Origin: a virus
Taxonomy: Duplodnaviria > Caudoviricetes
Virus record (IMG/VR): IMGVR_UViG_3300048854_000110
Span: 1 to 25,775 of that record
Direction: 5' to 3' (one strand)
Length of the DNA: 25,775 nucleotides
Shown: positions 3,750-19,317 of the stretch, one piece after another
Position numbering within the stretch: the stretch's first letter is position 1
How the letters are laid out: each line of letters begins with the position of its first letter
Program-made: the position numbers and the translations under genes
The notes under the pieces: model-generated
Told to the model about the DNA's origin: nothing
Databases searched by the model: none
Seen by the model: the letters and a program-made list of their open reading frames with translations, nothing else

Positions 3750-4352
3750 TCATGCGTCAATCCGCTTGAAGGTGATAGCCCATAGCCATGGGTTGGCGTC
3801 CCATGAACCGTCGCCGTTGATGCAGTCCCATAGCTTTTTGAAAGATGGCTTGTATAGTCCTCTTTCTGCCTGAAAAGGTATCCTCTCTTCGACACCTTCG
3901 GCGGCGGCATCCTCTTCGCTGATCTCCTGCAACCGCTGCACGCGCACATCGGTTAACTCAAGCGTGATGCGCGAGGCCCAACGAGGCATATGGATTGATG
4001 GCTTCCACTTAGCGCCGTTGAGTAGGTGACCACCATCAGCGGCATAAACCGCTTGATCTGGTCCTTCGGTAGTTCCCGCTGAAGAGTACGTATTGCATCG
4101 CCAACTGTAGAACGTCTCCCGCACCCACAGCCGGTCTCCTGGCTTGCTATAGGGGCAATGCCTAAGAATCGTGGAGCTTGACGGATAACGATCCAGAGCA
4201 TATATTCCATCCTTCCATCGATAGATCTTTCCCTGACCCTCTCCATCAATCCAGAGCGGCTGAGGTTTGACTATCCGCCGCGTCTGCGTCTTTCTACCCT
4301 CAAGGATCGCCCTCACCATCGGGGCGCCAAACAATATCGGTCTCTCTTTCAT
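3750..4352 (-). CDS. ASCH/PUA-like conserved phage protein
   Basis: MKERPILF..MVRAILEGRKTQTRR, PGDRLWVRETF, WKPSIHMPRWASRITLE, WDANPWLW. Start 4352 is in an ATGA overlap. Confidence 0.88.
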   Translation of the reverse strand: MKERPILFGAPMVRAILEGRKTQTRRIVKPQPLWIDGEGQGKIYRWKDGIYALDRYPSSSTILRHCPYSKPGDRLWVRETFYSWRCNTYSSAGTTEGPDQAVYAADGGHLLNGAKWKPSIHMPRWASRITLELTDVRVQRLQEISEEDAAAEGVEERIPFQAERGLYKPSFKKLWDCINGDGSWDANPWLWAITFKRIDA

Positions 4353-4972
4353 GCTCGACTCACTTTCCATATACCGGCAGCTATGCCTATTGCTAAAAGG
4401 GCTAATGTAGAAGGCTCGGGAGTAGGGGCTATTGGCGTTACAGGTGGAGCAGCATGTCCGCTATTACCGCCGCTTCCATAAGCACCACCCCAGCCAGCAA
4501 ACCAACCAGGAAAACCGGAATTGGGTCCATATTGCTGATCAACCACCGGACTTCTTTCAGTAGTTTCATAAGTCGGGTATTCCTCCTCTTGAATCATTTG
4601 TTGCGGCGTCTCGGCTGCAAAATCCATTCCATCCCCAGCTTTCGGAATAGCCACGGCCAGAACAGGCTGCCCAGCCACCAACCCAGAGCCATCGATCCCA
4701 GAAGCCCCAACCAATCCTTCATCTCGTGTGCCACACATCACCTCCAAAGCCTTTCTCGCTCGCTCTTTCATCCTTGCCGTCTGCGCGCTCATGTCGCGGT
4801 CGAGATGATGCTTCACCACATACGCCGGGTGCGCATGGTTCCACGCCTGGATCGCCTTCACCCTGCGAGCCCAGACCTCTTTGAGGTCCACATGGCAGGT
4901 CTCAGATACGGCTATCACTGCAGGCATGCCGAGGGAGACAGAGAGGAGGCAGAGTGAGACGGAGCGCTTCAC
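4349..4972 (-). CDS. PEP-CTERM sorting-domain protein
   Basis: N-terminal hydrophobic signal; Gly/Pro linker; C-terminal TPEPSTLALLAIGIAAGIWKVSRA (PEP, TM helix, basic end). Confidence 0.85.
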   Translation of the reverse strand: MKRSVSLCLLSVSLGMPAVIAVSETCHVDLKEVWARRVKAIQAWNHAHPAYVVKHHLDRDMSAQTARMKERARKALEVMCGTRDEGLVGASGIDGSGLVAGQPVLAVAIPKAGDGMDFAAETPQQMIQEEEYPTYETTERSPVVDQQYGPNSGFPGWFAGWGGAYGSGGNSGHAAPPVTPIAPTPEPSTLALLAIGIAAGIWKVSRA

Positions 4973-6414: not shown

Positions 6415-7475
6415 TAGTAAGCCACCTTTACATTGGGGATCTGGCCTTTAGCGATAGCAGTGATAGCCTTTCGGGCATCATCATTTGATAAGCCAGCAGC
6501 TACCAGGGCCTGCAGGGCGGTATTGTTCACCTCAGCCCTATGCGCTTTGTCTTTCTCCCGCGCCTTCGCCTCTTCCTCCACGCGGCGCTTCTCATTGGCC
6601 ACACGCTGGCGCTCGGCTTCGATAGCGGCTTGCTTCTCCCGCGCATGACGCTCTTCGGCAGCGATACGATCCGCCTCGGCCTTGCGGGCCTTCATCTCTG
6701 CGGCTTCTTTTGCGATGATCACGTCGTGCTCACGCTGGCGCGCTTCACGCTCTAAACGTGCTTCTCGCTCAGCAGCTTCTCGTGCAGCCTGCTCCTCCCG
6801 AGCCTTAGCCTCGCGCTCTGCGCGCTCCTTAGCTTCGCGGGCGATACGCTCCTCGCGGTCCCGCTGTTCACGCTCAGCCGCCTCAGCACGTAGGCGAGCT
6901 AGCTCAGCGGCTTGCTCCTCGCGTACCTTGATGCGCTCCATGATGTCTTTGGTTCGCAGTATCTCGGCATCGATAACCTGCTTAGCTCTAGCACCGAACT
7001 CTTGCCAATCTCGTGAGGCGTAAGTAGCCTGCAGGAATTGCAGGCGGAATTCGATCTCCTGCGAAGTCTCCGTGGCTCCATACATCGAGCTTTCCGGGAT
7101 CTCGGCTATCGCTTTCTCGTGCGCGGCTACTCGCTCTTTCTCGGCATTCTCCCAATCCGTGAGGGGCTTGCGCACTTCGGCCTGCAGCGATTCGAATTCG
7201 TTCCAGACGCGCCGGCCTTCGGCATCTATCACCGCCAAACGCTTTTTCTCGTCGGCAACCAAGGCTTTACGCTGGTCGTCGATGAATGTCTTGCTTCGTG
7301 CGATCTTGTAGGAGAGTGAGGCAAGCTCCTTGCGATTGCCGGGGGTGGATATGTCCAGCTTCGCGGCCTGGTCCAATGCCTCAGTCCGGATCTTCCCGAT
7401 AATCGGGTCGATGACCTCTGGTTTGAATAGGTCAATCGGTGCGAGTTTTTCAATAACTGCAAGTTCGGTAGACAT
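6414..7475 (-). CDS. Phage coiled-coil protein associated with the recombination module
   Basis: R.ELASLSYKIARSKT, long E/R/A-rich helix and a C-terminal IAKGQIPNVKVAY, as in lambdoid early-region proteins. Confidence 0.85.
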   Translation of the reverse strand: MSTELAVIEKLAPIDLFKPEVIDPIIGKIRTEALDQAAKLDISTPGNRKELASLSYKIARSKTFIDDQRKALVADEKKRLAVIDAEGRRVWNEFESLQAEVRKPLTDWENAEKERVAAHEKAIAEIPESSMYGATETSQEIEFRLQFLQATYASRDWQEFGARAKQVIDAEILRTKDIMERIKVREEQAAELARLRAEAAEREQRDREERIAREAKERAEREAKAREEQAAREAAEREARLEREARQREHDVIIAKEAAEMKARKAEADRIAAEERHAREKQAAIEAERQRVANEKRRVEEEAKAREKDKAHRAEVNNTALQALVAAGLSNDDARKAITAIAKGQIPNVKVAY

Positions 7476-8248
7476 TACCTAGCTTCCTTTCCATAGAGCT
7501 CTGCCTTCTTCAGGTCCTTGGCTTTGATAAATGCTTGCATCGCGGCCTTATCTCCTAGGTCCTGCGCGATTTTGTAGCCTGCACTGAAGGTCTTCTGCAG
7601 GATGGGGAGGGAGTCTGCAGCTTCGATAAGACCCATCACGCGGTCATAGTCTCCGGTTTCCATCTCTGGCTTTTCGCCAGACCCATTGCCGTCGTCATCC
7701 ACGTTTCCTTCTGTACTAGCCAAGCCGGTGGCTAACTCGAAAGTGGTGATCTTGGCATAGGTGATCGAAGACTTTACCTGCTGGAGAGGGTTCTTAGCTC
7801 CCGAAGTGTCTTTTTGTACGGTCATCCATTTCGTGACGCCTTTATGGCCTAGAGCATGGGTGATTGTGTATCCGACGCGGATGTCGGCGCCGCCCTGATC
7901 TAGGTCCCACTCCCCGCTCAGGCCGTACTTTCCTAGAATCGGCGTCACCGTGTTCACCAGGTTGCCGATGGATGTATAGCGAGATCCGTATTGCTTATTC
8001 TCTTTGTCCTTAGAGATAAAGATGGCTTCCTTCTTGAAGTCGGCCATCGCCTGAACGTAGGCCTTCTCAGCCTGTTTAGCCTCCCACTGGAACTGCATCT
8101 CCATGAGTCGCTGCATTCGGTCAAGGTCGGCATTCTGCGACATAGCCATCTGCAGAAGCATCATTGGAGTTACTTGCGGAGCGGGTACATCTTTGGCTCC
8201 TTCAAGGGCTACGGAGTCCTTCAGTTGTTGATCCAGTACGGTACTCAC
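7475..8248 (-). CDS. erf: ERF family single-strand annealing protein
   Basis: D.DRMQRLM.MQ..WE...A..AY..AM, N..YGSRY, ITHALGH, NPLQ..SSITYAK and terminal DDDGN. Confidence 0.88.
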   Translation of the reverse strand: MSTVLDQQLKDSVALEGAKDVPAPQVTPMMLLQMAMSQNADLDRMQRLMEMQFQWEAKQAEKAYVQAMADFKKEAIFISKDKENKQYGSRYTSIGNLVNTVTPILGKYGLSGEWDLDQGGADIRVGYTITHALGHKGVTKWMTVQKDTSGAKNPLQQVKSSITYAKITTFELATGLASTEGNVDDDGNGSGEKPEMETGDYDRVMGLIEAADSLPILQKTFSAGYKIAQDLGDKAAMQAFIKAKDLKKAELYGKEAR

Positions 8249-8338
8249 TTAGCGCCTCCAGGGGTTCAAGTTGTCGTTGAGGTAAATGCAGCCGATTACT
8301 ACGAGAGAGAGCAAGGCAGGAGCGAAGAAGAGAATCAT
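8249..8338 (-). CDS. 29-aa single-TM microprotein
   Basis: MILFFAPALLSLVVIGCIYLNDNLNPWRR; ATGA overlap upstream, stop abuts the ERF start. Confidence 0.6.
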   Translation of the reverse strand: MILFFAPALLSLVVIGCIYLNDNLNPWRR

Positions 8339-8484
8339 TGGTCGTAACCTTTCTGGCGGTCAGCATGGGCAGCTACTCGTGCCAGTGACCAGAAGAAGAA
8401 GATGGAAGCCGCATAGAGGACTGCGGCGCTGACGGTGATGAAGATTCCGCTTAGGTAGCTGATCTGAATGCCGAAGAGAGTCAT
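8335..8484 (-). CDS. 49-aa single-TM microprotein
   Basis: MTLFGIQISYLSGIFITVSAAVLYAASIFFFWSLARVAAHADRQKGYDQ; GAGGT RBS and ATGA overlaps. Confidence 0.7.
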   Translation of the reverse strand: MTLFGIQISYLSGIFITVSAAVLYAASIFFFWSLARVAAHADRQKGYDQ

Positions 8485-8690
8485 GCTGCCACCTCGTCAG
8501 GATCTGGCTGTATAAATCCAGCATTGACATCTTCTAGAGCTCGCTTGAATGCATCTCGCTTGCTTAGCCCAAAGGCGCAGATATAGTTGCCAGCGAACAC
8601 CGTGTATCTTGTCATCTGTGCTCCCGCAGGTTCGGTAGTGACTCTTGCATGCGGAAATCTCCTGCGAAACTCTCGCTCAAACTTGCTCAT
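8481..8690 (-). CDS. Hypothetical protein (MSKFEREF..., 69 aa)
   Basis: ATG 8690 in an ATGA overlap. Confidence 0.75.
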   Translation of the reverse strand: MSKFEREFRRRFPHARVTTEPAGAQMTRYTVFAGNYICAFGLSKRDAFKRALEDVNAGFIQPDPDEVAA

Positions 8691-8857
8691 GCTGCTGCCT
8701 TCCTTTCCTCTTCCGCGTTGCATCGGCATTCGCTCTCTGACTTGAAACAAAGCATGCAGTCGTAAACCTCAAGGCCGTCGTCTTCTGGATCGTCCGAGGC
8801 ATTTGTATTGGCGAGGTCGTACTGATACTCCAGATAGTCAAGGGATGGGCCGATCAT
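8687..8857 (-). CDS. 56-aa acidic protein with CxxC...CxC
   Basis: Not in the ORF track. MIGPSLDYLEYQYDLANTNASDDPEDDGLEVYDCMLCFKSESECRCNAEEERKAAA; ATGA overlaps at both ends. Confidence 0.72.
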   Translation of the reverse strand: MIGPSLDYLEYQYDLANTNASDDPEDDGLEVYDCMLCFKSESECRCNAEEERKAAA

Positions 8858-9045
8858 GCTGCCACCTGCTTCTTCTCCGCTCGTGCGATGGCGCGGGTGA
8901 TGTGAAGGCGGGCGCTATAGAGCTCGGCCTCAAGGTCCTCGTCCTGCCGGTCGGCAATGTGGGAATCGATCAATTTCTGGATTACCTCAAGGGCTGATGG
9001 CAGAAGGTAGCGGGGAAGCTTCGGGGTGAATGTTGGTTCAGGCAT
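8854..9045 (-). CDS. Hypothetical protein
   Basis: AAAGGAG RBS, TAATG coupling with the regulator gene. Confidence 0.75.
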   Translation of the reverse strand: MPEPTFTPKLPRYLLPSALEVIQKLIDSHIADRQDEDLEAELYSARLHITRAIARAEKKQVAA

Positions 9046-9332
9046 TACAGGTCTCCTTTTGCAGGAATTTTTTTGCGGGACACAGTTAGGCCAATTTCCG
9101 TAACAACTAAATTGCGGAACTTGCCGGGGGCCTGATCAAGAAGAGACTTCTGAATCAGCCGAGAAATCGTATGCCGTATAGTCGACTTTGAGCGCCGTGA
9201 TAGCTTAGCGACTTCATCGAAGGTGGGTGAGGCTCTATGCCGATTCACATAGTTGCGAATGGCGCGTAAAACCTGCATTTCCGCCTCAGAAATGGTTACT
9301 ATGCCGTTCACTTTTGCTCTTGTCTTCCTCAT
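9045..9332 (-). CDS. LexA-type winged-helix DNA-binding domain-only regulator (no S24 peptidase domain)
   Basis: SEAEMQVLRAI..Y......SPTFDEVA......KSTI...I.RL.QK.LL...PGK.R.L matches the LexA N-terminal domain; only 95 aa. Confidence 0.85.
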   Translation of the reverse strand: MRKTRAKVNGIVTISEAEMQVLRAIRNYVNRHRASPTFDEVAKLSRRSKSTIRHTISRLIQKSLLDQAPGKFRNLVVTEIGLTVSRKKIPAKGDL

Positions 9333-9340
9333 AGAAAGTA

Positions 9341-9369
9341 ACTATGAGGCATGCACACACCTGTGTCAA
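9341..9369 (-). promoter_or_regulatory. Leftward sigma70 promoter (PL-like)
   Basis: TTGACA (9369-9364), 17 nt, CATAGT (9346-9341). ATG follows 8 nt later with no RBS. Confidence 0.8.
9352..9366. promoter_or_regulatory. Operator B TGCACACA-N2-TGTGT
   Basis: Lies in the PL spacer; the same motif occurs at 11471-11485. Confidence 0.7.
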
Positions 9370-9382
9370 GAACAATTCTTGA
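9366..9382. promoter_or_regulatory. Operator A palindrome TCAAGAA-N3-TTCTTGA
   Basis: TCAAGAACAATTCTTGA overlaps the PL -35 box; identical arms occur at 11423-11439. Confidence 0.85.
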
Positions 9383-9447
9383 TAAACCAAGAGATTCTTA
9401 TGCACACAAGAAATTCACCCTAAGAGAAGGAAACCTCAAGAATAATG

Positions 9448-9476
9448 TTGAAAGTCGACTTACCCGGTGTTACTGT
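9448..9476 (+). promoter_or_regulatory. Rightward promoter for the peptide/7-TM cassette (PRM-like position)
   Basis: TTGAAA (9448-9453), 17 nt, TACTGT (9471-9476) with an extended -10 TG; degenerate operator A at 9436-9452. Confidence 0.7.
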
Positions 9477-9555
9477 TCAGATTCCATGACCACGAAGGCA
9501 ACTGTTCGAAGAAGGAATAATCAACTCCAGGCGCCATTGCGCTCGGAGAATACCT

Positions 9556-9726
9556 TTGAAAACTCAGTTGATTTTTGCTTTGGCTATCGTTCTTGGTCTT
9601 GGTTGTTTCGCTGTCGCAAAGCCTTCCGCTCAACACGCAAGCCTTACGACGACAAACGATGGAGTTCCGGTCCCGATGTGCAATCCCACCCAAGACAACT
9701 GCAACGCGGCAGGCGGACCGCGATAG
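9556..9726 (+). CDS. 56-aa secreted pre-peptide with C-terminal PxPxC-x6-C motif (candidate signalling peptide)
   Basis: Not in the ORF track. GGAGAA RBS at 9545-9550, TTG start; MKTQLIFALAIVLGLGCFAVA/KPSAQHASLTTTNDGVPVPMCNPTQDNCNAAGGPR. Confidence 0.88.
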   Translation: MKTQLIFALAIVLGLGCFAVAKPSAQHASLTTTNDGVPVPMCNPTQDNCNAAGGPR

Positions 9727-9750
9727 GCAGCGGCCTCCAATGGAGGCCAT

Positions 9751-10515
9751 GTGCTATCTAATTGGTGGATTACAGCGCTATCGACTATAGAGATCTGCGC
9801 GCTCTGCGCGGCGTTGATTGCAATGTCGCGCAGGCCTATAGTTCTTTATCGGTGGCCTTCTTTGTTTGCATCGCTTTTATTGGAATGCAGCAGGGACATC
9901 ATTCTGATGAGCTGGCTCTCGAGGCCGGGCCACTATAAGTCTTACTTTTGGGTTTACTGGGTCACGCAGGTGATACGGGCGATGTTGCGGCTATGGATCA
10001 TAGGCGACATCATGCGTTCTTTTCAGGGAATAGATTTTCTTCCATCGAAGATATATCTATTTGTCGGGGTAGCCGGCGCCACGATGGGACTGGCTTCCGC
10101 TTATTACTGCTTTCATTCTCCGGGGAAGCTGCCGGAGCAATGGATCAACTTGGCATTCATGCTCAATCAGTGCGTCAATGTTGGATGGTCGACGTTCTGC
10201 ATTGCTATCTTGGCAGCTATAAAACTAATCAACCTTGGCTGGAACCCATCAGGGGCTAAGGTGACAGTTGCTATTGTTATGCGCATCGTGGGCGATCTTT
10301 TGGTGGGGGAGATGTTTACTTCTCACTTCAGAATCATCCGCGTTTTGGGCAATTGCTTCGATTCGATTATGACGATCGGAGTATGCCTTATGCTGACTTG
10401 GTTATTCATCAACCCTTTGGCTGATGATCGGAGCAGGGTCGAAGATCCTGCCTCGGAAATGGTTAGACGAAGCGCAGCCATGTTGCTCGCCTTCGGAAAA
10501 AAGAGAGAGGGCTAA
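9751..10515 (+). CDS. Predicted 7-TM membrane protein (candidate peptide receptor)
   Basis: GGAGG RBS, GTG start, about seven hydrophobic segments by eye, short C-terminal helix, no enzymatic domain. Confidence 0.85.
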   Translation: MLSNWWITALSTIEICALCAALIAMSRRPIVLYRWPSLFASLLLECSRDIILMSWLSRPGHYKSYFWVYWVTQVIRAMLRLWIIGDIMRSFQGIDFLPSKIYLFVGVAGATMGLASAYYCFHSPGKLPEQWINLAFMLNQCVNVGWSTFCIAILAAIKLINLGWNPSGAKVTVAIVMRIVGDLLVGEMFTSHFRIIRVLGNCFDSIMTIGVCLMLTWLFINPLADDRSRVEDPASEMVRRSAAMLLAFGKKREG

Positions 10516-10523
10516 AGCCGACG

Positions 10524-11015
10524 ATGAGAGACATAATCATCGCGTTATCAGCAATACTTGTTTTAAAACTTCTGCCACAGAAAAAAGACTTCATGCTGAC
10601 CTGCGAAGAGATGAGCTTGCGAGCACCAAAAGGGCACTATGAAGATCTCTGCGAATACGGGACGGGAGGGTCCAAGTTTGACGACCCATCCTTCTGGATC
10701 GCGTCGGACGGCGTTCATGGGCTCAGAGATCGAATGGCCGTCTCGTACTTTTATCTGCGACTCGTTCAGAATCACCGCAAGCTTAGGACAATCGACCTAT
10801 CAGACAGCTATGACATATGGTCGAAACTGATTAGGCAGCTTTTCTATAGCATTCTGGCATTGCCAGAAGCAGCACTGGGCCATCTCTACCACACTCATTA
10901 CCGAGCAGCGCGCAAATCCGTAGCGCTCTATTGCGAATTGCTTATTCGGGCCAACACGCTGTGTTTCTCTGCATCTAATCGCTTGTGTCCCATAAATACC
11001 CCTGAGTTGTTGTAA
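10524..11015 (+). CDS. N-terminally anchored helical protein (candidate transducer)
   Basis: Starts 8 nt after the 7-TM stop; hydrophobic N-terminus IIIALSAILVLKLL. Confidence 0.8.
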   Translation: MRDIIIALSAILVLKLLPQKKDFMLTCEEMSLRAPKGHYEDLCEYGTGGSKFDDPSFWIASDGVHGLRDRMAVSYFYLRLVQNHRKLRTIDLSDSYDIWSKLIRQLFYSILALPEAALGHLYHTHYRAARKSVALYCELLIRANTLCFSASNRLCPINTPELL

Positions 11016-11031
11016 TATCAGGACTAAATCT

Positions 11032-11418
11032 ATGCCTAGCTACTCCAAAAGCACCCCAGACCTGCTCAAAAAGCGGCTGAGGGAGCTATATGAAGAACTG
11101 GCTTTGACATCTCCCCAGGTCATGCAGGAAATTCGCCTTATCGAAGGCCTTTTGAAGGCCACAGGCGAAGACTCTAGCCAGCCCTACGCCAGCATCACAT
11201 CCCCCTGGGATGCGATCGATACCTGCTTGACTTTGCGCGGTGACTGGAAGATGACTAAGGTGCAAATTATGGAAGAGATCTTGAACGGTGGATATCTTGC
11301 GTCCAAGCCCAAAGCATCCCGCGGTCTGCTCAATGACAGCCTCAACTACCACATCAAAAAAGGCTACCTCACGATGAAGGGTGAGCTCATTGGGCGCAAC
11401 CCTAAGAAGAATTCTTGA
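11032..11418 (+). CDS. Coiled-coil plus winged-helix-like protein (candidate repressor)
   Basis: N-terminal heptads, then DAI..CL......MTKVQIMEEI..GG...LNDSLNYHIKKGYL...GELIG. Its 3' end overlaps an operator. Confidence 0.72.
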   Translation: MPSYSKSTPDLLKKRLRELYEELALTSPQVMQEIRLIEGLLKATGEDSSQPYASITSPWDAIDTCLTLRGDWKMTKVQIMEEILNGGYLASKPKASRGLLNDSLNYHIKKGYLTMKGELIGRNPKKNS

Positions 11419-11439
11419 CTAATCAAGAATTCTTCTTGA
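11402..11439. promoter_or_regulatory. Tandem operator A sites
   Basis: CTAAGAAGAATTCTTGA (11402-11418) and TCAAGAATTCTTCTTGA (11423-11439), 21-bp period. Confidence 0.85.
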
Positions 11440-11464
11440 CATGATGTCTGAAGTAACCTAAGTT
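11436..11464 (+). promoter_or_regulatory. Rightward sigma70 promoter (PR-like)
   Basis: TTGACA (11436-11441), 17 nt, TAAGTT (11459-11464). Confidence 0.8.
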
Positions 11465-11497
11465 TGTCTCTGCACACAGTTGTGTGTTAGAGACAAA
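11463..11497. promoter_or_regulatory. Extended inverted repeat containing operator B
   Basis: TTTGTCTCT...CACACA-GT-TGTGTG...AGAGACAAA. Confidence 0.7.
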
Positions 11498-11829
11498 TGG
11501 CCCATTCCCGTAAAAACCCCGAAGCAATCAAGCGATATCCAGACGGTCGCATCCGATGCCGCACAAAGACGGCGTGGGAGAAGATACGCAAGATCGTGTT
11601 CGACCGTGAGGAGGGGTTGTGCGAGGGCTGCATGACTTGGGCACCCCTGCACAACACCGAGGATGCGTTTGCCGGTCACGCACACCACATCAACGGACGC
11701 AAGGAAGGGAACGATCATCCTGACGTCCTGAAGTGGCTCTGCGGTAGGTGCCATTCCAAGGCACACATTCCCGACAAAGTGGTGCCGGCCAAGCCCAAGT
11801 ATTCACTCCCATCAAGCGAGGTGGCGTGA
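11497..11829 (+). CDS. HNH endonuclease
   Basis: W.KIR..VFDREEGLCEGC...HAHHI.....G.D....L..LCGRCH..AH. Confidence 0.88.
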   Translation: MAHSRKNPEAIKRYPDGRIRCRTKTAWEKIRKIVFDREEGLCEGCMTWAPLHNTEDAFAGHAHHINGRKEGNDHPDVLKWLCGRCHSKAHIPDKVVPAKPKYSLPSSEVA

Positions 11830-12743
11830 TGGGAAGAATACGCACAATAAAGCCGGAGTTCCCGCAGTCCGAATCCATCGGTAGGCTCTCGCGGGATGCG
11901 CGGCTTCTTTTCATTCAACTCTGGACGATTGTCGATGATTCGGGTGTTTCTCGCGGAGCCTCGCGAATCCTCGCGAGCCTTCTTTACCCGTTCGATGACG
12001 ACGCGGTAAGCGGTATCGAGGCATGGATCGAAGAACTGGAAAGGGAAGGGATGGTGGTCCGTTATCAATCTGAGGGAACCACCTACATACAAATTATGAA
12101 CTGGTTGAAACATCAGAAGATAGACAAGCCAAGTCCTTCTAGACTTCCTCAATTCGCGAGCCCTCGCGAGGATTCGCGAAAGGTAGCGGCTGTACCTAGG
12201 ACCATGGACCTAGGACCGATACCACCTAAATCCGCCTGTGAGGCGGACGAGTTGAAAAAGTTCGAATCTGGATTGAAAAAGTTCGGTGGTGAAGGATCTG
12301 CGTCGCTCCATGTTTTCGCCGAAGAATTGCTCGCTGACGGAGGTTGGGAGGTTGTGCGGGAATACCCCGTAGCTGATCGTGGCGATGGGAGGAGAGGCAA
12401 GGTCGATCTCGTGGCGACTAAGAAGTTCCCGGACGGATCTCTGTCCTGGGCGATAGAGCTTGATTGGAAAACTCCCCGCGAAAAATCCCTTCACAAGCTT
12501 CAGCAGATCGACGCCACACGCATCGTGGTTCTGCGCGAAGGCCAAGCTGATTCCAAGGTGCCCAATGGTTTCTGTCTGATAAATATCAAGCCCGCCTTGG
12601 GTCAGCAAAGCATCCAGAAAATCCAACCAGGATTGTCGCCTCCCACACCACACCATGCATACCAGGAATCGGCAGAGACGCTAGGCTTCTGCGCGCAGTG
12701 CGGTTTCAGCAAGGATCACGAATCACACAGGGAGGCAGCATGA
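11829..12743 (+). CDS. Phage replication initiator-like protein with C-terminal PD-(D/E)xK-like domain and zinc module
   Basis: MGRIRTIKPEF...LSRDARLLFIQLWTIVDDSG...NW.KHQKIDKPS N-terminus; later REYPV...GKVDLVA...AIELD. Start in a TGATG overlap. Confidence 0.8.
   Translation: MGRIRTIKPEFPQSESIGRLSRDARLLFIQLWTIVDDSGVSRGASRILASLLYPFDDDAVSGIEAWIEELEREGMVVRYQSEGTTYIQIMNWLKHQKIDKPSPSRLPQFASPREDSRKVAAVPRTMDLGPIPPKSACEADELKKFESGLKKFGGEGSASLHVFAEELLADGGWEVVREYPVADRGDGRRGKVDLVATKKFPDGSLSWAIELDWKTPREKSLHKLQQIDATRIVVLREGQADSKVPNGFCLINIKPALGQQSIQKIQPGLSPPTPHHAYQESAETLGFCAQCGFSKDHESHREAA
11951..12180. repeat. Two triplets of TCGCG(A) at 10-bp period (candidate origin iterons)
   Basis: At 11951/11961/11971 and 12154/12164/12174; 11961-11977 is the exact reverse complement of 12163-12179. 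Confidence 0.65.
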
Positions 12744-13000
12744 TTCCAATTGGGAAAGTTTTACAGCGCGCCCGCGAATTGCAGGGCTTGAGCAGACCGC
12801 AGATGGCCGATCTCATCGGCGTAATTCGCCAGCAGGTTTACAAAGTCGAGGCCGGACATGCGAGCCCCAGTTTGGCCACGATTGAGAAGTTCTCCAACGC
12901 CCTTGGCATACCGGTCTGGCAGCTCATCAAGATCGCCCAAAAAGAAGAGTGGTTATCCCGCAAGCGCAGAGAGAAGTTTCTCTCGAAGGAGGCGGCGTGA
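12740..13000 (+). CDS. XRE-family HTH regulator
   Basis: R...GLSRPQMADLIGV.RQQVYKVEAG...PSL.TIEK...ALG; GGAGG RBS. Confidence 0.92.
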   Translation: MIPIGKVLQRARELQGLSRPQMADLIGVIRQQVYKVEAGHASPSLATIEKFSNALGIPVWQLIKIAQKEEWLSRKRREKFLSKEAA

Positions 13001-13167
13001 TGGGCAGACCGAGAAGTCCGGAAAGGGCAGAGCTGATGAAGAATTACTCGCTATCCAAGTCACAGCTTCACCGACTGAGCGGGAAGAAACTGGAGCAATT
13101 GAACGCATGTCAGAACGATGCGGCGAGGCGGCTGCTGCTAGGTGTTGGCAGAAAGAAGGCGGCATGA
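13000..13167 (+). CDS. Small basic hypothetical protein
   Basis: GGAGG RBS, TGATG coupling, MGRPRS start. Confidence 0.72.
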   Translation: MGRPRSPERAELMKNYSLSKSQLHRLSGKKLEQLNACQNDAARRLLLGVGRKKAA

Positions 13168-13319
13168 GGCGAGGCTATCAAGACGACTGCGGTTGCATCT
13201 ACTGCAAGGGCATTCGTCGTGACCGCGAACAGGACCGCAAGGAAGCTGAGCAATTCGAAATCGATAAACCAGCACTGGTTCGGATCGTGACGGAATGGAG
13301 GAAACGCCATGAAGCATAA
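13164..13319 (+). CDS. Small Cys-cluster hypothetical protein
   Basis: ATGA overlap; CGCIYC. Confidence 0.68.
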   Translation: MRRGYQDDCGCIYCKGIRRDREQDRKEAEQFEIDKPALVRIVTEWRKRHEA

Positions 13320-13434
13320 GAAGCCGCGCTACAGCCTTGTGGACTGCGATTGGTGCAGCACAGGCCTGGTTGAGCAGTGCGAGAAGTGCGGCGGCTCGGG
13401 CAGCATCCCGGTTGTGGAGAGGAAGACGTGGTGA
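13309..13434 (+). CDS. 41-aa zinc-finger microprotein (DnaJ-like CxxCxGxG)
   Basis: Not in the ORF track. GGAGG RBS; MKHKKPRYSLVDCDWCSTGLVEQCEKCGGSGSIPVVERKTW. Confidence 0.68.
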   Translation: MKHKKPRYSLVDCDWCSTGLVEQCEKCGGSGSIPVVERKTW

Positions 13435-14627
13435 TCTACGGATCTGTATGCAGCGGTATCGAAGCCGCAACTGTGGCATGGCATCCCCTAGGAATGAAGC
13501 CGGCTTTTTTCGCTGAGGTGGATAAATTCCCGTCTGCTGTCCTGAAACACCACTATGCTGGCGTCCCGAACGCTGGTGACTTCACTGCCATTGGAGCGAA
13601 CGACTATGAGCCAATCGACCTTCTGGTCGGAGGAACACCTTGCCAAGATTTCAGCGTCGCCGGTCTCAGAGCAGGAATGGACGGCAAGCGTGGTCAACTC
13701 ACAATCGAGTTCGCTCGACTTGCTGGCAGGCTCCGGCCTAGATGGCTGGTATGGGAGAACGTCCCCGGCGTCCTGTCAATTGATGGCGGACGAGCTTTTG
13801 GCCTGTTTCTCGGACAGTTGGGGAAACTCGGGTATGGGTTCGCCTACAGGGTTCTTGACGCTCAGCACTTCGGAGTTCCACAGCGGCGCCGTCGCGTCTT
13901 CGTTGTCGGACATCTTGGAGACTGGCGACGTGCCGCAGCGGTACTTTTTGAGCGCCACAGCCTGTCGGGGAATCCTGCGCCGCGCAGAGAAAAGGGGCAA
14001 GTCGCTCCCACACTCCCTTCGCGCCGCTCTGGAGGCGGTGGCCTCGGCGGAGACTTCGACTATGACGGTGGGCTCATTGCCAGTACTGGAGACATCGCTC
14101 ACTGCTTGAACGCTGGTGGTATGGGGCGTCAGGATTACGAGACCGAGACTCTCATAGCCCAAACTCTCACCAGCGGAGGAACTGGAGCGCGTGGCCATCT
14201 TGATCCAGTAAATACCACGCTGCTGCCGGTGGCCTTCGACTGCAAGCGCGGAGGTGAATCTGGAGAGGTATCGCCAACCCTACGCAGCATGAGCCACGAC
14301 GGAAGCCATGCGAACGCCGGTGGGCAGGTGGCAGTGGCATTCGATACCACCCAGATAACAGCACCCATATGCAGGAGTCAGCCCGCAGAGGGAAAGCCTT
14401 GCCACACTCTTTCTTCGCAGGCTCATCCTCCTGCAATCTTCGGGAGCATGGCGGTGCGCCGCCTAACTCCCCGCGAATGTGAACGCCTACAAGGCTTCCC
14501 AGACGACTACACGAAGATCAGCGACAAGACAGCCGATGGACCGCGCTACAAGGCTCTAGGAAACAGCATGGCTGTGCCGGTCATGCGATGGATAGGTGAA
14601 CGCATACAGATGGCGGAGGCAGCATGA
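13431..14627 (+). CDS. dcm: DNA (cytosine-5) methyltransferase
   Basis: Motif I SVCSGIEA, IV GGTPCQDFS, VI ENVPG, VIII QRRRRVF, IX RRLTPRECERLQGFP, X YKALGNSMAVP. Start GTG at 13428 or 13431. Confidence 0.96.
   Translation: MIYGSVCSGIEAATVAWHPLGMKPAFFAEVDKFPSAVLKHHYAGVPNAGDFTAIGANDYEPIDLLVGGTPCQDFSVAGLRAGMDGKRGQLTIEFARLAGRLRPRWLVWENVPGVLSIDGGRAFGLFLGQLGKLGYGFAYRVLDAQHFGVPQRRRRVFVVGHLGDWRRAAAVLFERHSLSGNPAPRREKGQVAPTLPSRRSGGGGLGGDFDYDGGLIASTGDIAHCLNAGGMGRQDYETETLIAQTLTSGGTGARGHLDPVNTTLLPVAFDCKRGGESGEVSPTLRSMSHDGSHANAGGQVAVAFDTTQITAPICRSQPAEGKPCHTLSSQAHPPAIFGSMAVRRLTPRECERLQGFPDDYTKISDKTADGPRYKALGNSMAVPVMRWIGERIQMAEAA
13606..14109 (+). CDS. Overprinted +1-frame protein inside the methyltransferase (M.EcoHK31I beta-subunit-like)
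   Basis: GGAG RBS at 13593-13596, ATG 13606; SLSDILE..VPQRYFLS..AC.GILRRAEKRGK.LP..L..AL. Confidence 0.65.
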   Translation: MSQSTFWSEEHLAKISASPVSEQEWTASVVNSQSSSLDLLAGSGLDGWYGRTSPASCQLMADELLACFSDSWGNSGMGSPTGFLTLSTSEFHSGAVASSLSDILETGDVPQRYFLSATACRGILRRAEKRGKSLPHSLRAALEAVASAETSTMTVGSLPVLETSLTA

Positions 14628-14932
14628 CCCCAGAAGGCGAGCTCAAGGCCGAGGTGAACGAGTACCTGAGAGATTCGGGCCGCTTCTTTCTTCGCATGCA
14701 GAGCGGCCGCGTCAAGGTGAAGAGGGGGGTTATGCATCTCTGCCCAGAAGGAACTGCTGATTACCTAGTTTGCTGCCCAGACCCGCGCTGGATCGAGTTG
14801 AAGGCGCCCGGAGCAAAGACCAAGAAGGAGCGAGCAGAGAAACAGCAAGAATTCGCGGATAGGGTCATAGCCCTCGGCCACAAGCACCTGACGGCGGAGA
14901 CGTTGGATGAAGTGATTGATTTTGTGAAGTAA
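14624..14932 (+). CDS. VRR-NUC domain nuclease / putative junction resolvase
   Basis: E..L...V..YL, GTAD, WIELK.PG, KQQEF.....ALG motifs. Confidence 0.88.
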   Translation: MTPEGELKAEVNEYLRDSGRFFLRMQSGRVKVKRGVMHLCPEGTADYLVCCPDPRWIELKAPGAKTKKERAEKQQEFADRVIALGHKHLTAETLDEVIDFVK

Positions 14933-14950
14933 CTGCCTTGGAGGGAACAC

Positions 14951-15142
14951 ATGAGATGCACCGAATGCAATTCGATCGCGCTTAGGTTAGGGACAAGGGG
15001 CCGAGCATACTGCGGAGCTCATGAAAACAAGGCATGGGAACAGGCCAAGGAAGACGGGGCTCATAAGTCGAGGATGGCAGACATTCGATCGGCTGAAGAG
15101 AGAGACAACTTCTTCCATGAGCGAATGCTGAGGGCCGTATGA
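14951..15142 (+). CDS. Small zinc-binding hypothetical protein
   Basis: GGAGG RBS; CTEC...YCGAH. Confidence 0.75.
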   Translation: MRCTECNSIALRLGTRGRAYCGAHENKAWEQAKEDGAHKSRMADIRSAEERDNFFHERMLRAV

Positions 15143-15387
15143 CAGTACCGATCGGGCTCGCGCTAAGGGCAGCAAGGAAATCTCGCAAGATGACTCAGGC
15201 GGAACTTGCCAAAAGGTCAGGCGTCGACCGCACTTACATTTCTCAGATCGAGAACGGAAGATTTACTCCTCGTCTTGAGCGCGTGGAAGAGCTATCAACG
15301 GCCATGAAACTGAGCATTTCTCAGATTTTCCTTCAGGCGGAACTGATAGCCGAGACAAATGTTGTCCCCCACAATCCTTCTGCATAA
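15139..15387 (+). CDS. XRE-family HTH regulator
   Basis: LRAARKSRKMTQAELAKRSGVDRTYISQIENGRFTP. Confidence 0.95.
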   Translation: MTVPIGLALRAARKSRKMTQAELAKRSGVDRTYISQIENGRFTPRLERVEELSTAMKLSISQIFLQAELIAETNVVPHNPSA

Positions 15388-18256: not shown

Positions 18257-18781
18257 ATGGCAGACGAGACGCAGTACAACGATGGTGGTGAGCAGTTGAA
18301 TGCAAATGGCCTGCCGGAAGGCTCCGCTTCTGTTACGGGTGGATACGATGGCGCCGAGGTAGGGCAGGGCTCAGTCCCCGCAAGCACTGCGGCCCCACAG
18401 GATGTTGTAGTGAAGGGAACGCCGGTCGAAGCCAACAAGGTGCCTGAACATCTGGACTTCGCGTCCTCTCGCATCCCTTACCACACAGCAACGACTGAGA
18501 AGATCGCTCGCGAACGTGCCGAAGCCCTGAAGGATGAACCGGTGAAGGAGTATCACTACGAAATGAATGGCTATGTGGTGGAAGAGGTCGAAGGCCCGAA
18601 CCCGCAGGCGACGAAGGTTGAGGATGCGAACAAGCTCTGGAAGGTCACGCAGGGCGACTTCGAGCAGTACTTCAACAATCAGCGCGCAGCTGAGATCTTT
18701 GCCAACACGCACTCGCCTCAGTTTGCGGCGAATTCGACGGTGAAGAACAGCACAGCCGTTCAGGATCTGCCGAAGACCTAA
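18257..18781 (+). CDS. Acidic hypothetical protein
   Basis: AAAGGAG RBS; abuts terS. Confidence 0.8.
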   Translation: MADETQYNDGGEQLNANGLPEGSASVTGGYDGAEVGQGSVPASTAAPQDVVVKGTPVEANKVPEHLDFASSRIPYHTATTEKIARERAEALKDEPVKEYHYEMNGYVVEEVEGPNPQATKVEDANKLWKVTQGDFEQYFNNQRAAEIFANTHSPQFAANSTVKNSTAVQDLPKT

Positions 18782-19317
18782 AAGCTGGCATACTCTCCGA
18801 AGTGCTTTGTAGCAGACGAGCAATAAGCAGCATGGGCCTCTTCCTTAGTTGAAAACGTTCCTAGATGAATCAGGCGCTTGTTCACGCGGATAGAGGCCTT
18901 GAACTTTCCACCATATGCCAGGGTTACGCCCTTCAAACCTGAAGCAGCTCGGCTCTGAACCTTACGGTTCATGGCATTCTGAGCGAAGGTGACGGGCCGA
19001 AGATTGCAACGGCGGTTGTCCATTGGATTACGGTTGATGTGGTCAACCATTCCGCCGATGAGAAATCGCTGCATTCGTACAACAGGATGCTTTCCGTCTT
19101 TAGGAATGTGCGTGCCGACATAGAAAGATCCCTTATCTTTCATGGTAGCCCAGTTCATCGCTTGGAGAGCTTCGGCATCTTCCCGATTGACTAAAGCAAA
19201 CATGCCGCGTGTCAAAGGTATGTAGGCGATCGAGGCCGAGATTGGAATGATTGCTTGACGCGGGCTGTAGGGACCTGTGGCGTTACCGAGTTTTCTTGGC
19301 ATAACGTAAGTGTACAT
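18778..19317 (-). CDS. HNH-AP2 homing endonuclease-like protein
   Basis: IPLTRG..ALV, VDHINRN.MDNRRCNLR..T..QN..N, and AP2 region SG.KGV...F.A.I......IHLG.F...EEA..AY...A..HFGEYA. Confidence 0.92.
   Translation of the reverse strand: MYTYVMPRKLGNATGPYSPRQAIIPISASIAYIPLTRGMFALVNREDAEALQAMNWATMKDKGSFYVGTHIPKDGKHPVVRMQRFLIGGMVDHINRNPMDNRRCNLRPVTFAQNAMNRKVQSRAASGLKGVTLAYGGKFKASIRVNKRLIHLGTFSTKEEAHAAYCSSATKHFGEYASF

Follow-up and report, generated by a model that had tools for sequence, protein, structure and literature searches.

A conserved peptide/7-TM/partner/winged-helix cassette in the phage immunity position: a possible signal-controlled repressor operon

Introduction

Control by four parts, i.e., peptide, receptor, intermediate and repressor, is known from the PhrI-RapI-ImmA-ImmR system of ICEBs1, in which PhrI is the inhibiting peptide. 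RapI is reported to make the protease ImmA cleave the repressor ImmR (PMC9956884). In lambda, whose cI-rexA-rexB operon lies between outward early promoters with palindromic operators over both, RexA is reported to bind CI and to help the switch to lytic growth (10.1101/2021.04.19.439022). A phage pre-peptide gene beside a receptor gene in a lysis-lysogeny context is characteristic of the arbitrium/RRNPP systems, where a short, imported peptide is paired with the cytoplasmic TPR protein AimR, and phiCDHM1 carries agrB/C/D, with a phage-encoded peptide and a multi-pass membrane sensor (both PMC11945551). In the LytTR Regulatory Systems HdrRM and BrsRM, the regulator is held inactive by a co-encoded membrane protein, with direct repeats at the -35 box of the operon (PMC6193735).

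In the present study, a phage locus that a sequence-only reading had put forward as a peptide-signalling lysis/lysogeny switch was analysed computationally. The window, i.e., the whole stretch of DNA analysed, is an entire virus record of 25,775 bases; it is a fragment, without an integrase match. Four of its genes form one conserved cassette in the immunity position, which is a new type of phage immunity region within the literature searched, where no description of the cassette was found (most subscription journals lay outside the scope of the search). The locus bears on two open questions, namely, the induction of temperate phages without a RecA-cleavable repressor and peptide-based decisions outside Gram-positive hosts.

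Results

Window, assembly and host

The left-running genes of the window include recombination functions (ERF, YqaJ), and the right-running genes include replication, methylase and terminase functions. Positions 7667-13928 were covered without any difference by one contig from a soil run, which is possibly the source of the record, so this match serves as an assembly check only. The nearest Atlas clusters of the 7-TM protein encoded in the cassette were bacterial, most commonly Acidobacteriota (score 0.95, with taxa drawn from few members); for this reason, the host is probably a member of the Acidobacteriota, and a diderm host is probable. The link to Acidobacteriota made in the first reading was supported in so far as the 7-TM protein has relatives there.

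Several other features of the window were recorded. Among the early left-arm genes, positions 4349-4972 (minus strand) encode a protein with a PEP-CTERM sorting motif (PF07589 and TIGR02595, both over the cut-off), and an HNH endonuclease gene (18778-19317, minus strand) lies on the opposite strand immediately ahead of the large terminase gene. The gene at 11748-12743 (plus strand) fuses a replication initiator N-terminus to a second domain matching phrog_1347 (function unknown). The Pfam scan of the window ORFs returned an XRE gene at 12698-13000, and a second small XRE-like helix-turn-helix ORF was seen by eye in the right operon (15139-15387, plus strand). Contig record 5 of run X1, placed on window positions 8339-14949, represents a deeper-covered relative, patches of which match both sides of the cassette and not 8972-11491.

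The four genes of the cassette

The cassette consists of the following genes:

9556-9726, plus strand: pre-peptide, 56 aa, with a TTG start behind GGAG and a hydrophobic leader followed by the Pro/Cys loop PxPxC-x-P-x3-4-C
9751-10515, plus strand: 7-TM protein, 254 aa, predicted N-out/C-in, without a catalytic domain
10524-11015, plus strand: partner, 163 aa, with one N-terminal hydrophobic anchor followed by a region of no known family
11032-11418, plus strand: helical hairpin plus winged-helix (wHTH) protein, 128 aa, the likely immunity repressor

This layout agrees with the four co-oriented, closely spaced genes described earlier, the gaps being 24, 8 and 16 nt in the 5' to 3' direction, and no terminator-like sites were found between 8900 and 11900. 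The four window proteins gave no match in Pfam (above the cut-off), PHROGs, NCBIfam or PADLOC.

The substitution pattern indicates that all four ORFs are real genes under purifying selection. In DNA contigs of close relatives (four DNA runs of one other study, low-depth contigs, 40 differences listed and 7 unlisted), the synonymous share among the differences listed was 8/8 for the peptide, 8/8 for the partner, 10/12 for the 7-TM gene and 1/1 for the wHTH gene, against 0/8 and 1/16 in two overlapping alternative frames. Between the related records L002 and L003, the peptide gene carries two synonymous and no other changes, and the 7-TM gene 26 and 11, respectively.

The 56-aa pre-peptide was confirmed as an ORF, and the motif residues P, P, C, P and C are invariant in six of six phages, with a disulfide predicted between the cysteines. 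The leader, for which export is predicted, and the conserved motif stand directly 5' of the 7-TM gene in all seven records, the window included. A lipoprotein assignment of the peptide was ruled out, the leader Cys missing in four of six. A DNA pattern for the peptide loop retrieved 65 loci, three of which were phages already known; a profile screen of the other 62 found none with a 7-TM, partner or wHTH match, this screen being circular for L003-L008, from which the profiles were built.

The search for the 7-TM family gave 121 matches at E ≤ 0.001, and no recurring Pfam family, and no TPR family, was found among 117 members. The model built on 117 sequences (pLDDT 92) contains seven long helices, in line with the roughly 7-TM protein of the first reading, and a C-terminal helix. 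All of the top 50 structure matches to this model were of GPCR type (best Z 13.2, rmsd 4.4, 205 aligned), with the reservation that a Z near 13 is reachable by helical bundles alone; Foldseek listed rhodopsins and GPCRs with a best E of 7e-3 and none at E ≤ 0.001, and the identity in the fold matches was 5-10%. The modelled protein therefore shows a resemblance to the GPCR/rhodopsin fold of a strength that helical bundles can reach. Loops 1, 3 and 5 and the tail are K/R-rich, and the same loops are more conserved (2.3-2.7 bits) than loops 2, 4 and 6 (3.1-3.6 bits); this combination of charge and conservation suggests an N-out/C-in protein that is conserved on its inner face and variable on its outer one. 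A conserved Lys in helix 7 (the retinal site) is absent (at most 5% of the 117 rows at any position), and the HExxH zinc protease motif occurs in 0/117 7-TM rows and 0/6 partner rows. Several scans of viral, genome and plasmid contigs for the 7-TM protein by exact short words or close similarity returned nothing.

The third protein has, as claimed, a single N-terminal hydrophobic segment (six of six), after which come basic residues, so the body of the partner is likely cytoplasmic. No relationship was detectable between partner and 7-TM protein, and a single partner gave a weak NCBIfam match below the cut-off (E 0.041).

The fourth protein, previously called winged-helix-like, was modelled as an N-terminal helical hairpin (residues 9-43) followed by a winged helix (54-124), the latter with a best fold match at Z 9.3, rmsd 2.0 and 68 aligned. 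A subfamily scan gave two loci, both already known, and scans of viral and genome contigs and GenBank phages by exact short words or close similarity gave no match; five further relatives were found beyond L001 and the cassette phages. In L001, two tandem hairpin plus winged-helix genes (773-1486) are divergent from an operon and have no peptide, 7-TM or partner gene upstream; the class I palindrome described below is absent from its 1.5 kb, although the third helix of the wHTH is near-identical.

Promoters, operators and the LexA-type gene

The following features flank the cassette:

9045-9332, minus strand: LexA-type DNA-binding domain without peptidase domain, 95 aa (PF01726, E 7e-6), leading the left early operon in a Cro-like position
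9341-9369, minus strand: PL-like promoter TTGACA-17-CATAGT, consensus match 10/12
9355-9366: class II palindrome RCAC-N4-GTGY, inside the PL spacer
9366-9382: OL1, a putative operator of class I with the sequence TCAAGAA-N3-TTCTTGA, lying over the -35 box of PL
9387-9412: OL2 and one more half-site of class I, both weaker, from the half-site map
9436-9451: class I-like site in the OM position, its halves 2 nt apart, covering the cassette promoter's -35 box
9448-9476, plus strand: candidate cassette promoter (PRM-like), TTGAAA-17-TACTGT with extended -10, from a manual scan and below the threshold of the general promoter scan
11402-11418: putative class I operator OR1, 2 mismatches
11423-11439: putative class I operator OR2, perfect, over the PR -35 box
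11436-11464, plus strand: PR-like promoter TTGACA-17-TAAGTT, from a manual scan, with same-placed matches in L003 and L005
11474-11485: class II palindrome RCAC-N4-GTGY, just 3' of the PR -10 box

The outward-facing early promoters around the cassette were thus recovered as predicted consensus matches, PL being listed by the general promoter scan and PR and the cassette promoter not. For the single promoter claimed ahead of the cassette, the window has a candidate match with TG at 9448; the same manual scan gave a comparable match in none of six related loci. The palindromes of class I and class II and the LexA-type gene are newly noted here, the first reading having left out the operators, the gene at 9045-9332 and the XRE gene.

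The 17-bp class I palindrome has two matches in the window at ≤ 1 mismatch, against 0.01 expected, and these lie over the -35 boxes of PL and PR; the third copy, OR1, overlaps the wHTH stop. At the level of sequence, the two outward early promoter candidates share palindromic operator-like sites, as in a lambdoid immunity region. Note that the class I half-site overlaps TTGACA, so that its conservation is partly promoter-driven. Among the differences listed for close relatives, OL1, OM, OR1 and OR2 carry none, and the 4 nt that separate OR1 from OR2 carry three.

Phage-specific palindromes, picked by eye in the related phages, occur at both cassette flanks in G000 (the window), G001 and G002: G001 carries the half-site of the window, spaced by 2 nt, at its two flanks and at no other place, and G002 carries a different palindrome at its two. 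AT-rich palindromes were seen in G003, G004 and G005, in one place each. G000 and G001, which use the same half-site, have 13/17 residues of the wHTH third helix in common, and G002, with the other half-site, keeps 4-5/17; at the same time, the LexA-type helix of G002 keeps 9/15 with G001. In these three phages, the putative operator versions track the wHTH third helix better than the LexA-type helix.

The stop of the LexA-type gene overlaps the start of the next gene, and one copy is found in five of five related phage records (open frames 95-101 aa). It is not detectably related to the wHTH (probability 12%). RCAC-N4-GTGY, a motif chosen after looking, has two matches in the window, both at the cassette flanks; elsewhere, it occurs at both flanks only in L003 and at one flank in L002 and L007, and is absent from the flanks of L005, L006 and L008. 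Its shape resembles the Gram-positive LexA box, so either the LexA-type protein or a host factor may bind there. None of three SOS-box-like patterns was found at the cassette flanks. A perfect 8-bp inverted repeat with a 7-nt spacer (window 9327-9349) covers the -10 box of PL and the beginning of the LexA-type gene.

The cassette in related phages

When viral contigs were searched with 7-TM proteins as queries, six further records were found (L004 and L003 being one and the same). The order peptide-7TM-partner-wHTH is kept in all five that are long enough (L003 and L005-L008), which were found via the 7-TM protein alone; the sixth, L002, ends inside the partner gene. The linkage of 7-TM homologues to an upstream peptide and a downstream partner, proposed as a check on the first reading, is kept in these records. 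Three of the five records are complete by terminal repeats, and each of the five has a tyrosine integrase and one wHTH.

The absence of a cI/S24 autopeptidase repressor was borne out: no S24 domain was found in 35 scanned ORFs of the window, a fragment that by itself proves little, or in the five related records, with the control positive in 9/14 genomes. PF07022 was likewise found in 0/5 related records. In the complete genomes G001 and G002, HTH_3, phrog_3 and phrog_8 gave no match, so that neither genome shows any cI-type family and the wHTH and the LexA-type domain are what remains; in G004 and G005, the matches to these three profiles lie inside the early operons.

Terminase identity is 78-85% among G000-G002 and 18-22% for G003-G005 mutually and against the rest (one cut at the region end). 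Since the latter are so dissimilar, the cassette, judged by the terminases, crosses phage lineages. Its proteins have 26-48% identity among G000-G002 and 19-48% throughout, so the cassette is more divergent than the terminases, a pattern resembling that of immunity regions. It lies between the early operons in G001, G002 and G004, and beyond xis-int, at a distance from the divergent promoters, in G003 and G005; the earlier statement that it fills the interval between the early promoters is thus true of the window and fails in two of five relatives. In G003, the wHTH gene overlaps the partner gene. Pairwise identities of the peptide, 7-TM protein and partner track one another (p 0.013-0.025), and those of the wHTH follow neither the 7-TM protein (rho 0.05, p 0.43) nor the partner (rho 0.31, p 0.16), all with the low power of six phages. 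One relative sits on a 4.1-Mb contig.

Additionally, a small ribbon-helix-helix gene (L006 2783-2980, minus strand; PF01402 E 9e-4, just under the cut-off) is divergent from the cassette in G003. Stretches resembling tRNA ends, possible attachment sites, were seen by eye between integrase and cassette (L006 ~2525-2580, L008 ~7350-7382), and ARAGORN called no tRNA in any of the five loci.

Discussion

The position, the fold, the operators and elimination of other candidates make it likely that the wHTH protein is the repressor, i.e., the equivalent of CI, and it likely represents a new repressor family. The wHTH has no self-cleavage domain and the other three genes travel along with it across unrelated phages, and because of this, the peptide, 7-TM protein and partner would be its off-switch. 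That the cassette is a signal-controlled repressor operon, with an envelope signal setting dormancy, has in our judgement about an even chance of being right, and the same balance applies to control of the wHTH by peptide, receptor and partner, which we infer from linkage alone; such peptide-receptor control of the repressor is plausible.

In the proposed mechanism, the wHTH would bind the class I palindromes, shut PL and PR and tune its own promoter, and the LexA-type protein, acting at the class II sites, would lower early promoter activity. The peptide would be exported, close its disulfide loop and bind the 7-TM protein on its variable outer side; on the inside, the conserved face of this protein would act on the anchored partner. 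The partner, in turn, would capture or release the repressor via the N-terminal hairpin of the latter, a step that would replace self-cleavage driven by RecA. Which way the signal acts is a guess: with the peptide bound, the repressor would be free and lysogeny maintained, and with the peptide lost through envelope leakage, proteolysis or reduction, the repressor would be held at the membrane and induction would follow.

A looped peptide of 3-4 kDa in a diderm would collect in the periplasm, being too large for porins. The default reading is therefore sensing within one cell, with envelope integrity, redox or the number of co-infecting genomes as the quantity that would be sensed, a logic like that of CpxP or MgrB. 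Density sensing is less sure, the host being probably diderm. If the cassette nevertheless served communication between phages, here outside the Firmicutes, the disulfide-looped peptide from infected or lysogenic cells would be read by the GPCR-like receptor in other cells and relayed via the anchored partner to a new family of non-cleaving wHTH repressors; peptide, receptor and operator would be phage-specific, and soil phages would count kin before choosing lysis or lysogeny. We regard this as unlikely, though still to be reckoned with, and rate it lower because both release and uptake of the peptide would be needed.

Several observations speak against the main reading, namely, the placement in G003/G005, L001, the wHTH distances, the overlap of operator and TTGACA, the fold match at helical-bundle level, the comparison of helices in three phages and the exclusion genes of lambda. 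The last of these lead to a rather unlikely explanation in which the wHTH represses on its own, as ordinary repressors do, and the triplet is superinfection-exclusion or abortive-defence cargo on the same lysogenic transcript, the peptide perhaps being an immunity factor. RexA and RexB of lambda are reported to be expressed from PRM together with CI (10.1101/2021.04.19.439022), the triplet has diverged strongly, in the manner of defence genes, and the wHTH stands without it in L001 and has distances that do not follow those of the triplet. However, the repressor gene closes the cassette, starting 16 nt after the partner gene (and overlapping that gene in G003), and none of the 19 proteins compared matches PADLOC 2.0 defence profiles. 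Exclusion or defence cargo is usually swapped freely, whereas these four genes stay joined in unrelated phages, including those with a relocated cassette; moreover, no self-cleaving repressor is present to account for induction. Cargo and relay can both hold, by analogy with RexA, which is described as also binding CI and shifting the switch.

Two further explanations were weighed, and we consider both improbable. The LexA-type protein, or a host factor, could be the master repressor at the class II sites, with the wHTH regulating mainly its own promoter or host genes and the four genes forming a self-contained sensory module. The LexA-type gene is indeed present once in each of five relatives, class II palindromes stand in repressing positions at PL and PR of G000 and G001, and in G003/G005 it is the sole regulator at the divergent promoters besides xis. 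Yet it heads or sits within the early lytic operon, where its translation is coupled to that of lytic genes, so the protein would hardly be made alone in a lysogen, and it is the class I sites that cover PL, PR and the cassette promoter, which is the pattern of CI. Alternatively, the triplet could be a copy of a host peptide/receptor system that rewires host envelope signalling, linked to the repressor by shared lysogenic expression only; the bacterial, most commonly Acidobacteriota, clusters that look like the 7-TM protein and the relative on the large contig fit this, but in the phage, ligand, receptor and partner stay joined to a phage DNA-binding protein, which goes beyond the needs of mimicry.

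With four short genes, two promoters and defined candidate operators, which can be rebuilt as reporters, the cassette is a compact test bed. To a so far uncharacterised peptide/7-TM family it adds a first candidate output (repressor and sites), and its 7-TM protein may be a bacterial peptide receptor of GPCR-like fold. Even if the triplet is exclusion cargo, the repressor family and the triplet match no family of Pfam, PHROGs, NCBIfam or PADLOC.

The likeness to GPCRs and microbial rhodopsins, of a strength that helical bundles can reach, is one of fold only, i.e., a seven-helix bundle predicted to be N-out/C-in, and the low identity, the missing conserved helix-7 Lys and the lack of a G protein set the phage protein apart; the lipocone paper (PMC12419801) does not cover the family. 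LytTR Regulatory Systems share the membrane protein co-encoded with a regulator and repeats at a -35 box, but the regulator here is a winged helix and probably a repressor, palindromes replace direct repeats, a peptide and a partner are added, and no LytTR Pfam match was found. The conclusion that neither arbitrium nor agr architecture is present stands. As in arbitrium, a phage pre-peptide gene lies beside a putative receptor gene, and as in phiCDHM1, the sensor would be a multi-pass membrane protein; unlike in these systems, the receptor is a 7-TM and not a TPR protein, the peptide is predicted to carry a disulfide loop, a partner and a separate DNA-binding protein are present, and no histidine kinase or AgrB match was obtained. 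The four-part logic is that of ICEBs1, with no homology found, a 7-TM receptor, an intermediate without HExxH (0/6) and a probably diderm host. With the lambda immunity region, the cassette shares its place in an operon between outward early promoters, each overlain by palindromic operators, a neighbouring small gene for a DNA-binding protein that diverges from the cassette promoter, and membrane and soluble companions in the repressor operon. It differs from cI-rexA-rexB in that the repressor candidate is a winged-helix protein with an N-terminal hairpin, last in the operon and without S24, the companions comprise a Cys-loop peptide, putatively exported, alongside a 7-TM protein and its anchored partner, and the gene in the Cro position encodes a LexA-type domain.
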